Below are positions 11,658 to 19,446 of a DNA stretch of 64,000 nucleotides, in pieces. The stretch comes from Candidatus Omnitrophota bacterium (lineage in GTDB: Bacteria > Omnitrophota > Gorgyraeia > Gygaellales > Profunditerraquicolaceae). The notes beneath the pieces were generated by a model, which worked only from the letters and a program-made list of their open reading frames with translations, did not search any database and had not been told where the DNA came from. Position numbers and translations under genes: made by a program. Every line of letters starts with the position of its first letter. Within the stretch, counting starts at the first letter, position 1. Where the stretch lies: assembly GCA_017992455.1 (NCBI GenBank), contig JAGOOP010000003.1, positions 2,696-66,695 of the forward strand. The letters run 5' to 3'.

Positions 11658-12107
11658 ATGATCGACCCTTGGTATGTGACTGGATTTTGTGACGGAGAAG
11701 CTGCTTTTACATTTAGTCGTGCAGGCGCTTCTTACGCCATTTATTTTGGATTACGACAACGGGCAGATAATGCTCAAATAATTGAAGAAATACACCAGTT
11801 TTTTAACTACGTCGGGCGCTTATATTATTCTAAAGGAGCAGCGCCAACACATAATAGCGGGTTAACACAACCAGCGATATATTATAGGGTGACGAAAAAC
11901 GAAGAACTCCAGGAAATAATCGCTCATTTTGATAAATATCCGTTGCAAAGCTTAAAAAAGCGAGATGCCTACAAGATTTGGCGCGAAATGGTGATTTATA
12001 AGAAAGATCATTATCGAGATATTGATTATGATACGATTAGGAGGCTCGCCGATTCTTTGTCTCAGGCGAATTCAAAGAGCAGGGTTTATAAACGTCACAC
12101 TAGATAA
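11658..12107 (+). CDS. Single-motif LAGLIDADG homing-endonuclease-family protein (free-standing)
   Basis: 149 aa. The N-terminal WYVTGFCDGEAAFTF is a LAGLIDADG motif with an acidic residue at the catalytic position, and the size matches homodimeric I-CreI-type enzymes. Its stop TAA overlaps the parA ATG (TAATG at 12105-12109). The gene is visibly AT-richer than its neighbours. Confidence 0.8.
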   Translation: MIDPWYVTGFCDGEAAFTFSRAGASYAIYFGLRQRADNAQIIEEIHQFFNYVGRLYYSKGAAPTHNSGLTQPAIYYRVTKNEELQEIIAHFDKYPLQSLKKRDAYKIWREMVIYKKDHYRDIDYDTIRRLADSLSQANSKSRVYKRHTR

Positions 12108-16620: not shown

Positions 16621-17292
16621 ATGCCCAGGGCATATAAAGAGTTACGCCTGACAGGTTCTAATCTTTGGTATGTTGTAGGTCTTATTACCACAGATGGTTG
16701 TTTGTCAAACGATCATCGGCATATTGATATTACGTCGAAGGATTATCAGCTGCTCAAAGCAGTTAAATCCGCCGCCTCTTTGACAAATAAAATAACGGAT
16801 AAGTATAACGGCCGTGGACAAAAGTCCTATCGTATCGGGCTTGCAAATCGAAAATTCTATGATTTCTTGCTTTCCGTAGGACTGATGACGAATAAATCGT
16901 TGATTCTCGGTCCCATTGACGTTCCGCGCGAATATTTTGCCGATTTTTTAAGGGGCGTAATAGACGGAGATGGCTGCATACGCACATGGATACACCCGAC
17001 AAATCATGGCAAGCAATGGAGCCTGCGGGTTTATTCCGGGTCCCGAAGATTCCTTCTGTGGCTGAGAGATATGGTCACGCAGCAATTCAGCGTCACGGGC
17101 AGTATGCATGTAAATGATACCAAAGCCAATCCCTGTTGGATCCTTAAATACGGGAAAATGGCTGCTCGTGAAATATGCCGTCGATGCTATTATCCTCGGT
17201 GCATTGGTTTGAACAGAAAGATCGTCTTGGCAGGAAAGTGTGTTAACGCGCGTTTTGGCTGGGGGAGAAGCAAGACGGTTTTGAACCATTAA
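16621..17292 (+). CDS. Double-motif LAGLIDADG homing-endonuclease-family protein (free-standing, inside a tRNA cluster)
   Basis: 223 aa with two LAGLIDADG motifs about 100 residues apart, WYVVGLITTDGCL and FLRGVIDGDGCI. The gene lies 24 nt after tRNA-Cys and 7 nt before tRNA-Leu, and is AT-richer than the surroundings. Confidence 0.8.
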   Translation: MPRAYKELRLTGSNLWYVVGLITTDGCLSNDHRHIDITSKDYQLLKAVKSAASLTNKITDKYNGRGQKSYRIGLANRKFYDFLLSVGLMTNKSLILGPIDVPREYFADFLRGVIDGDGCIRTWIHPTNHGKQWSLRVYSGSRRFLLWLRDMVTQQFSVTGSMHVNDTKANPCWILKYGKMAAREICRRCYYPRCIGLNRKIVLAGKCVNARFGWGRSKTVLNH

Positions 17293-17299
17293 TAAACTT

Positions 17300-17383
17300 G
17301 CCGAGGTGTTGGAACTGGCAGACAATGTGGACTTAAAATCCACCGTCCGCAAGGGCATGAGGGTTCGACTCCCTCCCTCGGCA
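17300..17383 (+). tRNA. tRNA-Leu (anticodon UAA)
   Basis: GCCGAGGTGTTGGAACTGGCAGACAATGTGGACTTAAAATCCACCGTCCGCAAGGGCATGAGGGTTCGACTCCCTCCCTCGGCA. It has a long variable arm, anticodon loop CTTAAAA and acceptor GCCGAGG/CCTCGGC, with no intron. Confidence 0.92.
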
Positions 17384-17405
17384 CATTGACAATCATAGTA
17401 GATAC

Positions 17406-17501
17406 GGGCTCATAGCTCAGCCCCGCGCAAAAAGCGCGCGGGACTCCTCGGGATGCACAGCGCATCCCTCGTCGTTGGTTTAAAGGAGTTCGCTATGAGC
17501 T
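17406..17501 (+). ncRNA. Candidate structured RNA unit 1 (begins with the tRNA-Val 5' 15 nt)
   Basis: The closing helix AGCTCATAGC / GCTATGAGCT joins the two ends. Internal hairpins are CCCGCGC-loop-GCGCGGG and GGGATGC-ACAGC-GCATCCC. A further helix, ACTCCT / AGGAGT, encloses the second hairpin. Confidence 0.45.
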
Positions 17502-17522
17502 ATTGACAATTACAGCAGATAC

Positions 17523-17615
17523 GGGCTCATAGCTCAGCCCCGCGCCTTTGGCGCGGGACTCCTCGGGATGCCGGCGCATCCCTCGTCGTTGGTTTTAAGG
17601 AGTTCGCTATGAGCT
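17523..17615 (+). ncRNA. Candidate structured RNA unit 2 (paralog of unit 1)
   Basis: It has the same helices as unit 1. The visible differences fall in or at the two hairpin loops: unit 1 has AAAAA between GC-rich arms where unit 2 has TTT between an 8-bp stem, and ACAGC in unit 1 is CGGC in unit 2. Confidence 0.45.
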
Positions 17616-17636
17616 ATTGACAATTACAGTAGATAC

Positions 17637-17713
17637 GGGCTCATAGCTCAGTTGGTTAGAGCGTTTCCTTGACATGGAAAAGGCCGGAGGTTCAAGTCCT
17701 CCTGGGCCCACCA
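17637..17713 (+). tRNA. tRNA-Val (anticodon GAC), CCA encoded
   Basis: GGGCTCATAGCTCAGTTGGTTAGAGCGTTTCCTTGACATGGAAAAGGCCGGAGGTTCAAGTCCTCCTGGGCCCACCA. D stem GCTC/GAGC, anticodon loop TTGACAT, T arm GGAGG-TTCAAGT-CCTCC. Confidence 0.92.
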
Positions 17714-17724
17714 TATTTTTAGAT

Positions 17725-19446
17725 ATGAACCTCGATACACTCAGACATTCATGCTCGCACGTGATGGCCGTGGCGGTCAAACAGCTCTGGCCGGGCGCCA
17801 AAGTCGCGATCGGCCCGTCCATCGAGGACGGGTTTTATTACGATTTCGACAAGAAAGAGCCGTTTACCGACGATGACCTTGCCCGGATCGAAGAGCGCAT
17901 GGCAGAGATCATCAAAAAGAACGAGTCCTTCGTGCGCGAGGATCTGTCGAAAAAAGACGCGATCGATCTGTTCACGAAACTCGGCGAGGATTACAAGGTC
18001 GAGCTGATCAGGGCTATTCCCGACGAGACAGTGTCGATTTACCGGACCGGCCCTGATTTCGTGGACCTGTGCCGCGGCCCGCATATCGCTTCGACCGGCC
18101 AGATCAAGGCGTTCAAATTATTGTCGGTCGCAGGCGCGTACTGGCACGGCATCGAGACCAATCCCATGCTCCAGCGCATCTACGGGACCTGTTTTGAGAC
18201 GAAGCCTGAGCTCGATCAACATCTTAAATCGCTCGAAGAAGCAAAACTGCGGGACCACCGCAAGCTCGGCCCCGGATTGGAGCTCTTTGATATTTATCAG
18301 GATATCGCAGGCCCGGGCCTGGTGTTCTATCATCCCAAAGGCGCGCTCGTGCGCAAGCTGATCGAGGATTATGAAAAGGCCGAGCATCTCAAGCGCGGAT
18401 ACCAGCTCGTCGTGACCCCGCATATCATGCAGGCGGAACTGTGGATGACCTCCGGCCATTACGATTATTACAAAGAGAACATGTACACGTTCAAGATCGA
18501 GGACCGGGAATTCGTCCTCAAGCCCATGAACTGCCCGGGCCATATCCTGATATATAAATCGAAGATACGCAGTTACAAAGATCTGCCGATCCGGCTGTTC
18601 GAGCTCGGCACCGTGTACCGCCACGAAAAAGCCGGCGTCATGCACGGATTGCTGCGCGTGCGCGGCTTTACGCAGGACGACGCGCACATATTCTGCCTGC
18701 CGGCGCAGGTCCGCGACGAGATCAAGGCAGCGGTCGGATTCGTGTTCGATACCATGAAGGTGTTCGGATTCGAGCATATGGATATCGAGTTGAGCACACG
18801 GCCGGCGAAATCGATCGGGTCCGACGAGGATTGGAACACGGCAACGGCGGCGCTCGAGGATTCGCTCAAAGGCCTCGGCCTGGCATATGAGGTCAACGAG
18901 GGCGACGGCGCGTTTTACGGCCCCAAGATAGACATCAAATTAAAAGACGCGCTGAAACGGTCGTGGCAGTGCGCGACCATCCAGTGCGATTTCAATCTGC
19001 CCAAACGCTTTTCGCTCGAATATGTGGACGCGGACGGAACGGCGAAACAGCCGATCATGCTCCACCGCGTGCTGCTGGGCAGCGTCGAGCGGTTTACCGC
19101 CTGCCTTACCGAGCATTATGCGGGCGCGTTCCCGGTGTGGCTTGCGCCCGTGCAGGCAACGGTGATCCCGGTGAGGGAGGATTTCAGCGCGTACGGCAAA
19201 GAGGTCGTCGATGCGCTCGTGCAGGGCGGCATACGCGCGGACATGGATGCGCGCAGCGAAACGCTCAACAAGCGGATCCGCCAGGCGGAAGTCAACAAGG
19301 TTCCTTATATTCTGGTTGTGGGTGAACGCGAGCTGACGTCGAAGCAGGTATCGGTGCGCAAGCGCCGCGAAGGCGACAAAGGTTCGATGGCGCTCGATGC
19401 CTTTATCGAGCAGGTCGGCCGCGAGATTATGGACCGGGCGCAGTAA
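17725..19446 (+). CDS. thrS: Threonyl-tRNA synthetase (no N-terminal TGS domain)
   Basis: Starts MNLDTLRHSCSHVMAVAVKQLWPGAKVAIGPSIEDGFYYDFD, which is the beginning of the editing domain. Class II motifs include FVLKPMNCPGHILIY, YRHEKAGVMHGLLRVRGFTQDDAHIF and GAFYGPKID. The ORF-track start at 17674 lies inside tRNA-Val. Confidence 0.93.
   Translation: MNLDTLRHSCSHVMAVAVKQLWPGAKVAIGPSIEDGFYYDFDKKEPFTDDDLARIEERMAEIIKKNESFVREDLSKKDAIDLFTKLGEDYKVELIRAIPDETVSIYRTGPDFVDLCRGPHIASTGQIKAFKLLSVAGAYWHGIETNPMLQRIYGTCFETKPELDQHLKSLEEAKLRDHRKLGPGLELFDIYQDIAGPGLVFYHPKGALVRKLIEDYEKAEHLKRGYQLVVTPHIMQAELWMTSGHYDYYKENMYTFKIEDREFVLKPMNCPGHILIYKSKIRSYKDLPIRLFELGTVYRHEKAGVMHGLLRVRGFTQDDAHIFCLPAQVRDEIKAAVGFVFDTMKVFGFEHMDIELSTRPAKSIGSDEDWNTATAALEDSLKGLGLAYEVNEGDGAFYGPKIDIKLKDALKRSWQCATIQCDFNLPKRFSLEYVDADGTAKQPIMLHRVLLGSVERFTACLTEHYAGAFPVWLAPVQATVIPVREDFSAYGKEVVDALVQGGIRADMDARSETLNKRIRQAEVNKVPYILVVGERELTSKQVSVRKRREGDKGSMALDAFIEQVGREIMDRAQ

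Follow-up and report, generated by a model that had tools for sequence, protein, structure and literature searches.

A 64,000-nucleotide (nt) stretch of a Candidatus Omnitrophota genome (contig JAGOOP010000003.1, positions 2,696 to 66,695; hereafter the window, with coordinates counted from its first letter) carries, directly upstream of a tRNA-Val(GAC) gene, two tandem units that most likely specify a structured RNA under selection, co-transcribed in a tRNA operon and released when the flanking tRNAs are processed. Our fuller reading, held with about even confidence, is that of a lineage-restricted, plus-strand structured RNA derived from tRNA-Val, which lies in the spacer of a tRNA-Cys/tRNA-Leu/tRNA-Val(-thrS) operon and acts in cis on pre-tRNA-Val. 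A cis role in the folding or processing of pre-tRNA-Val is favoured with moderate confidence, and beyond the sequence complementarity itself every step of that role is inferred.

Tandem Repeats Finder delineates an array at 17385-17651 (period 114, 2.3 copies, 91% matches, score 450), and a repeat search finds a 44-nt block, comprising a leader and the 5' part of the tRNA, in three copies spaced by 117 and 114 nt. Each repeat opens with a 21-nt leader, AUUGACAAUCAUAGUAGAUAC, followed by GGGCTCATAGCTCAG, which corresponds to tRNA-Val positions 1-15, the two together forming a 36-nt direct repeat. The leader has three matches with up to three mismatches, against an expectation of zero from shuffled sequences. 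Repeat and leader searches place its copies on the plus strand at 17385-17405, 17502-17522 and 17616-17636, the last being the genuine 5' leader of tRNA-Val. A tRNA is called only at the third copy, by ARAGORN as well as by Rfam (17637-17713, plus strand, CCA encoded, 72.7 bits). An earlier reading of this stretch made without database searches (the sequence-only reading) had described the three copies with these spacings and had taken only the third for a tRNA; the repeat searches and both tRNA callers agree with it.

The first two copies continue into unit 1 (96 nt, 17406-17501) and unit 2 (93 nt, 17523-17615), both on the plus strand, which score 104.6 and 96.2 bits, respectively, with covariance model (CM) R1. 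Their folding energies are -47.2 and -49.3 kcal/mol (z-scores -5.6 and -4.5), values that none of 200 shuffles equals, and folding reproduced for both units the closing helix, the GC hairpin and the GGGAUGC hairpin that had been proposed. The minus strand folds about as well (z-scores -5.0 and -6.4), and energy alone therefore does not decide the strand.

Support for a common structure was obtained by applying RNAalifold to six units and by counting pairs over eight distinct units from about five lineages. The results show a three-way junction of four helices, designated P1, P1b, P2 and P3. In unit 1, P1 occupies 17408-17416/17492-17500, P1b 17417-21/17474-78, P2 17422-28/17436-42 and P3 17450-56/17462-68, with the P2 loop AAAAAGC, the junction ACUCCUC (17443-49) and the 3' bulge UUUAAAGGAGUUC (17479-91) unpaired. 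Unit 2 has the same helices, with P1 at 17525-33/17606-14, a UUU loop on an 8-base-pair (bp) stem in P2 and the loop CGGC in P3. P1 (GCUCAUAGC/GCUAUGAGC, 9 bp) never varies, and two of its cells are broken in locus L010. P1b (UCAGC/GUUGG, 5 bp), which was first recognised in the present analysis, shows one compensatory change from C-G to U-A, two one-sided changes and two invariant G.U pairs. Compensatory changes are found in five of six pairs of P2, the first hairpin, whose loop is A-rich in most units, and in four of seven pairs of P3, the second hairpin, which carries a GAAA tetraloop in L015. Overall, 99% of cells are paired and ten pairs show changes on both sides; none of 500 shuffles reaches these counts of pairing and compensatory change, and the count for slid controls is 0-2. 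Two features support a plus-strand RNA: the invariant G.U pairs of P1b, which would be impossible on the minus strand, and the co-orientation with the tRNA.

Homologues in relatives and compensatory changes in both hairpins bear out the suggestion that this is a structured element under selection, and their occurrence across several lineages places it, in generic terms, among conserved structured non-coding RNAs. The differences between unit 1 and unit 2 are confined to unpaired positions, in keeping with the claim that they sit at the loops while the helices are kept: the P2 loop is AAAAAGC in one and CUUUG in the other, the P3 loop ACAGC and CGGC, and a third difference is a single shift in the 3' bulge (UUUAAAGG versus UUUUAAGG). 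The closing helix does use the tRNA-derived 5' end, as had been stated, with the refinement that the conserved helix starts at G3 rather than G1 and that a G2.U pair is seen only in the window clade. Comparison of sequences and folds found neither RCCA nor a T-arm in the units. An inner helix, ACUCCU/AGGAGU, had also been proposed; it is crossed by P1b, and while it can form in the window, it is 88% paired among the homologues, shows no compensatory change and has its central pair broken in four of seven units. It is at best a clade-specific pseudoknot or alternative pairing.

Homologues were sought by an exact-pattern scan of 185,579 species genomes and a further exact-pattern scan of metagenomes. 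The former gave one true match, L002, an Omnitrophota metagenome-assembled genome (MAG) of 42% GC whose contig begins inside the array, and the latter identified L010, L011 and L012 with units. Threonyl-tRNA synthetase (ThrRS) homologues, which assign the window to Candidatus Omnitrophota, led when traced into their contigs to divergent units in L015 and L018, beyond the reach of the patterns. The patterns are strict, so the distribution is under-sampled, L015 and L018 having been reached only via ThrRS synteny. With CM R1 and R2 the units reach 43-114 bits (E-values 1e-9 to 1e-27), and no other match appears in the 64-kb window or in about 100 kb of related loci (about 146-180 kb in total); the element occupies a single locus in all DNA examined. 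Units always lie on the tRNA strand, directly 5' of tRNA-Val(GAC), in five Omnitrophota lineages with ThrRS identities of 71-80% and unrelated leaders. Between genomes that differ in GC content (42% versus 55%) and have a ThrRS identity of 71-72%, the unit core reaches about 85% identity.

An intact unit is lacking at nine of the 18 loci examined, among them L006, L007, L008, L013, L014, L016, L017 and L019. L016 retains at 737-800 a decayed remnant, GGGCTCATAGTTTGAA...TTGTTGTTGG, which lacks the 3' strand and is not detected by the CMs; the tRNA-Val downstream of it has a differing 5' end, GGGCGGTTAGCTCAG. Two further pattern matches were set aside. L001 (Eubacteriales) lacks the rest of the unit, is negative with the CM and is taken as chance. 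L009, a metagenome contig of 65% GC, also lacks the rest of the unit, reaches only 15-17 bits (E-values 0.16-0.33) and is probably chance as well; its 26 nt at 1788-1813, identical to P3 and the following junction (CCTCGGGATGC-TGC-GCATCCCTCGTCGTT), are intergenic, and no tRNA is found there.

The composition of the unit points to its origin. It consists of tRNA-Val positions 1-15, two hairpins, a D-loop remnant (GUUGGUUAGAG in L010), a conserved GG(A/U)GUUC bulge and the GCUAUGAGC strand. The 11-mer GTTGGTTAGAG is common to the L010 unit and the D-arm of tRNA-Val, and other units keep GUUGGU. Since positions 1-15 and these D-arm segments match, the unit appears to derive from tRNA-Val: it can be described as the 5' third of that tRNA with P2, the junction and P3 inserted in the D-loop, followed by GG(A/U)GUUC and the antisense strand.

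Arrays differ among close relatives. The window holds one type 1 and one type 2 unit, in that order; L003 and L004 (99.82-99.90% DNA identity to the window) have a single type 1 unit, L005 (99.92%) two type 1 units, L012 (95-98%) a single type 2 unit, and L013 (about 86%) an empty site with one copy of the window leader. Unit 2 of the window and the lone unit of L012 have almost the same sequence. The two types have a common P2 stem and differ in its A-rich or U-rich loop (17422-17442 versus 17539-17557), a difference that resembles a partial hairpin-loop inversion; both persist in the population, type 1 in L003 and L005 and type 2 in L012. The 36-nt direct repeats would account for expansion, contraction and precise loss, because unequal recombination or slippage between them could produce the tandem state and, likewise, clean loss.

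A cis-acting spacer RNA is favoured because the 3' strand of P1 is complementary to positions 3-11 of the downstream tRNA. This strand, GCUAUGAGC, does not vary and matches tRNA-Val 3-11 with perfect complementarity in every unit, including that of L010, although the unit's own 5' strand has two mismatches there. The distance from the 3' strand to G1 of tRNA-Val is 16-22 nt in all unit-bearing lineages despite their differing leaders; the upstream distance between unit and tRNA-Leu is 8-76 nt, and empty-site spacers measure 3-82 nt. Genes for tRNA-Val starting with GGGCGGTTAG or GGGCGCGTAG are found at loci with no unit or with a decayed remnant only. When unit, leader and tRNA are folded together, predicted alternative pairings (of the 3' strand with tRNA 3-11, or of the unit's 5' end with the 3' acceptor strand of the tRNA) lie 4-9 kcal/mol below P1 plus the cloverleaf.

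These observations suggest how such an RNA might work. The unit would form part of the tRNA transcript, from which 3' processing of tRNA-Leu and RNase P cleavage at +1 of tRNA-Val would release it. Processing of the flanking tRNAs alone would already suffice. The sequence-only reading had suggested release by RNase P at the +1 of the unit itself, a route for which the predicted helix geometry is not especially favourable. Within the transcript, GCUAUGAGC (segment 2) would pair with the tRNA-like 5' end of the unit (segment 1) to form P1, and could equally well base-pair with segment 3 (tRNA positions 3-11 further downstream), in which case the cloverleaf and RNase P would be blocked. The logic would be attenuator-like, with pairings 1:2 and 3:4 set against 2:3, and the conserved junction could be the site where a factor tips the balance. 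The result would set the maturation of tRNA-Val and, wherever thrS comes directly behind, the 5' end of the thrS mRNA. Taken to its full extent, this would be a cis RNA switch gating tRNA maturation, in which a sensing junction decides between closure of P1 and invasion of the 5' strand of the pre-tRNA-Val acceptor and D-stem. We offer this most specific version tentatively and consider it rather unlikely. If true, the switch would control the supply of tRNA-Val and, in genomes in which thrS begins 7-17 nt past the tRNA, would also govern where the thrS-infC-rpmI-rplT mRNA starts and how it is translated; as a riboswitch- or attenuator-type control of tRNA folding it would be without precedent. 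Regulation of thrS as the sole role is weakened because L010 has the unit and tRNA-Val without thrS.

Several points weigh against a conserved RNA acting in cis on pre-tRNA-Val. The pair counts cover only eight distinct units from about five lineages, in an alignment fitted to the model. P1 never varies, so that covariation lends it no support, and the lack of variation could simply mirror the conserved tRNA sequence. Nearest-neighbour folding leaves aside the tertiary structure of tRNA and the order of co-transcriptional events, and since the unit alone folds with P1 closed, the predicted 2:3 conformer may never arise in vivo. Inheritance with the original duplicated leader, rather than a constraint, could explain the constant spacing of 16-22 nt. 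Frequent loss, with half of the loci examined lacking an intact unit, shows that the element is dispensable. Some copy numbers may be artefacts, as short-read assemblers collapse or break such repeats; apart from L002, cut off inside its array, the P0011 contig begins about 270 nt upstream of thrS.

No match to a known RNA family was found. None of the 4227 models of Rfam 15 matches the units of the window at E <= 10, as the sequence-only reading had anticipated, and in L002, L010, L015 and L018 searches at E <= 1 give only tRNAs and no match over the units. The units likewise have no tRNA match at E <= 10 and are negative with ARAGORN and with the tRNA-like models of Rfam; only positions 1-15 and the D-loop remnant are common to unit and tRNA. 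A promoter scan found no sigma-70-like promoter in the units, and the only hit of a terminator scan within them (17572-17588) is weak, with a 5-pair stem that overlaps P3. The leader contains TTGACA, for which there is no usable -10 box and which is absent from the leaders of other clades. Located between co-oriented tRNA-Leu and tRNA-Val genes and lacking its own promoter and terminator, the element has the position of a spacer RNA. It does not resemble a ToxI-like type III toxin-antitoxin locus: tRNA-Val and thrS follow downstream, where a ToxN-type endoribonuclease gene would be expected, and the units measure about 115 nt and often occur singly. A literature search on Omnitrophota with tRNA-like or RNA motifs found no earlier description.

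The main rival to a cis role is a trans-acting small RNA (sRNA) that tRNA processing would excise from the operon spacer and for which the tRNA-like 5' end would be only historical or of use in processing. Such an RNA could be a base-pairing regulator or sponge, acting through unpaired CUCCUC, UCGUC or GG(A/U)GUUC, or a protein-binding RNA. We regard this as possible, though doubtful. It is consistent with a stable, covarying three-way junction that exposes conserved single-stranded segments and with retention of the unit in L010, where thrS does not follow tRNA-Val. However, CUCCUC is not universal (L018 has AUUUCGC) and no target can be proposed, and a trans-acting RNA leaves unexplained both the fixed distance to tRNA-Val and the invariance of the anti-tRNA strand while the unit's own 5' strand drifts.

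A riboswitch-like sensor, in which a metabolite or protein binds the junction as its aptamer, locks P1 and so frees the 5' strand of tRNA-Val, the tandem arrangement being cooperative, appears improbable. Its layout is the classic one, with P1 as switching helix and a downstream alternative partner: the 3' strand of P1 is predicted to pair alternatively with tRNA-Val 3-11. Junction and bulge nucleotides are partly conserved, L015 has a GNRA loop, and tandem aptamers are found in known riboswitches. Speaking against it, the lengths and loops of P2 and P3 vary widely, with large insertions in L018, whose junction sequence is not strictly conserved either; no ligand suggests itself, and the element is dispensable in close relatives.

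Neutral duplication debris, that is, a decaying and functionless partial copy of tRNA-Val with chance hairpins, expanded by slippage, is very unlikely. The repeat does include the tRNA 5' end and the native leader, copy number varies, the element is easily lost and L016 shows a decayed remnant. Decay is nevertheless hard to reconcile with ten compensatory pairs and nearly complete pairing, with the confinement of all differences between unit 1 and unit 2 to unpaired positions, or with a core conserved at about 85% despite ThrRS identities of 71-72% and unrelated leaders.

We give slightly less credence still to a mobile DNA element, be it a miniature inverted-repeat transposable element (MITE), for which AGCTCATAGC/GCTATGAGCT would serve as terminal inverted repeats, or a mini integrative element that uses the 5' end of tRNA-Val as attachment site (att) and leaves att-X-att. 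Filled and empty sites among close relatives, a patchy phylogenetic distribution, mutually identical leaders in L012 and the perfect 36-nt direct repeats that flank X in the window clade would all suit it. P1 does resemble an inverted repeat, but a MITE or dispersed repeat is expected at more than one place, and the CMs find one locus only, with a 20-mer of the unit present in one true genome contig among the 185,579 species and no matches among viral contigs. Integrative elements in tRNA genes usually repeat the 3' half of the tRNA. Here the direct repeat covers the 5' end, and the repeats enclose an insert of no more than 78-81 nt, whose structure is conserved. No transposase or integrase is encoded nearby, the sole nuclease open reading frame (ORF) in the vicinity being of the LAGLIDADG type and uncorrelated with units; the flanking leaders are unduplicated in the low-GC clades, and the conserved G.U pairs favour RNA over DNA hairpins. 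A translated leader peptide regulating downstream expression is hardly credible: the mini-ORF AAGGAG-N6-AUG-AGC-UAU-UGA of the sequence-only reading exists in the window, and a Shine-Dalgarno-like purine tract (GGAG or GGUG) stands in all units 6 nt before an AUG that lies within the P1 3' strand, but the frame is not conserved (3, 7, 14 or 19 codons, from MSY* and MSRRTKN* to frames that in homologues extend into the leader or the tRNA), L011 has a weak AAAGUG, and the AUG is imposed by complementarity to tRNA positions 6-8.

The unit belongs to a broad known kind, that of orphan structured RNAs and tRNA-spacer RNAs; judged by its sequence, what is distinctive is that it is built from, and antisense to, the neighbouring tRNA. 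A precedent for a functional RNA from a tRNA spacer exists in Escherichia coli, where, as proposed here, a non-tRNA part of a polycistronic tRNA transcript is released by tRNA nucleases and can have a function of its own (PMC6191717). The E. coli RNA is a short, largely unstructured base-pairing sponge that ends in a terminator, whereas the present units are internal spacers with a covarying three-way junction, arise from the adjacent tRNA and occur in tandem. The distal repeats of E. coli tyrT are tandem units of about 178 bp, each with the 3' end of tRNA-Tyr; they are thought to come from unequal recombination, vary in copy number and encode a small basic protein. They, too, are tandem units beside a tRNA gene that each carry a fragment of that tRNA, but they lie downstream, contain the 3' end and code for protein, while the present units lie upstream, contain the 5' end, lack a conserved ORF and, across lineages, covary at the RNA level. 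RNAC and RNAD are encoded in the tRNA gene cluster of phage T4 and mature with the tRNAs. They are stable small RNAs whose function is still unknown (PMC9697503). They are phage-encoded, single-copy and not derived from the 5' end of a neighbouring tRNA; no resemblance to the units in sequence or structure is expected.

As in attenuator and riboswitch platforms, GCUAUGAGC could pair with either of two identical partners, one of them upstream and the other downstream, and the downstream one is needed for a functional fold. Unlike in those platforms, the putative regulated fold would be a tRNA cloverleaf instead of a terminator or ribosome-binding-site hairpin. RNase P-processed tRNA-like structures include the MALAT1/mascRNA element and the tRNA-like domain of bacterial YrlA. 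The unit is similarly a tRNA-derived or tRNA-mimicking module inside a longer transcript, and differs from them in having no T-arm, anticodon arm or CCA end.

The gene order at the locus is ndk, yicC, gmk, rpoZ, coaC, tRNA-Cys, a LAGLIDADG ORF, tRNA-Leu, the units, tRNA-Val and thrS-infC-rpmI-rplT, with dnaA and dnaN about 10 kb upstream. The tRNA-Leu(UAA) gene (17300-17384, plus strand; ARAGORN; Rfam tRNA, 50.4 bits) has no encoded CCA, and maturation of its 3' end would define where the spacer RNA begins. On the other side, thrS (threonine-tRNA ligase, 17725-19446, plus strand) is followed by infC-rpmI-rplT; its AUG lies 11 nt past the CCA of tRNA-Val and has no Shine-Dalgarno sequence. Similarly tight junctions between tRNA-Val and thrS (about 7-17 nt) were seen in L006, L008, L011, L013 and L017. 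The 5' end of the thrS-infC-rpmI-rplT mRNA is probably created by tRNA processing, leaving it nearly leaderless.

The free-standing LAGLIDADG_3 ORF between tRNA-Cys and tRNA-Leu (16621-17292, plus strand, 223 amino acids (aa), Pfam E-value 2e-10) is kept in L006, L008 and L012 and degraded in L013, and a second ORF, of the LAGLIDADG_1 type (149 aa, ~11658-12107 of the window), lies between jag and parA. Homing-endonuclease-type genes within a core tRNA and origin-proximal region are unusual. A tie between the upstream ORF and the units was considered and rejected, since the ORF occurs in L006 and L008, where a unit is lacking, and L011 bears a unit but no such ORF. In L017, a LAGLIDADG-like ORF missed by annotators lies upstream of tRNA-Cys, and the 82-nt spacer between tRNA-Leu and tRNA-Val (995-1076) holds unrelated inverted repeats, GTTAACAGTTCAC...GTGAACCGTGAGCTGTTAAC.

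Other spacers of the operon contain structured modules as well. A perfect 15-bp hairpin follows tRNA-Cys directly in L010 (8502-8574), L014 (671-757) and L018 (407-441); it starts in the CCA end of the tRNA (CCATTTAAATTTTCC-GACAA/GTTAA/GATAA-GGAAAATTTAAATGG) and is followed by more hairpins with CGACAAG-type loops. These form a second family of conserved structured modules in the spacers of the same operon. Between tRNA-Cys and tRNA-Leu of L018 (454-729) a module of at least 51 nt is present three times, at 69-90% identity, and each copy ends in ..(A/G)TGGTAGC like a tRNA D-loop; the module may be another spacer repeat derived from a tRNA fragment.

If confirmed, the units represent an undescribed structured RNA family in an uncultured phylum, composed of a tRNA fragment, two hairpins and a strand antisense to the tRNA that follows it. 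Such an architecture amounts to a built-in competition with tRNA folding and would offer a concrete example of regulation or quality control exerted through pre-tRNA structure; it could also couple tRNA processing to expression of thrS-infC-rpmI-rplT. It would also show how RNA genes arise from partial tRNA duplications, with 36-nt repeats letting them expand, contract and vanish within a species.

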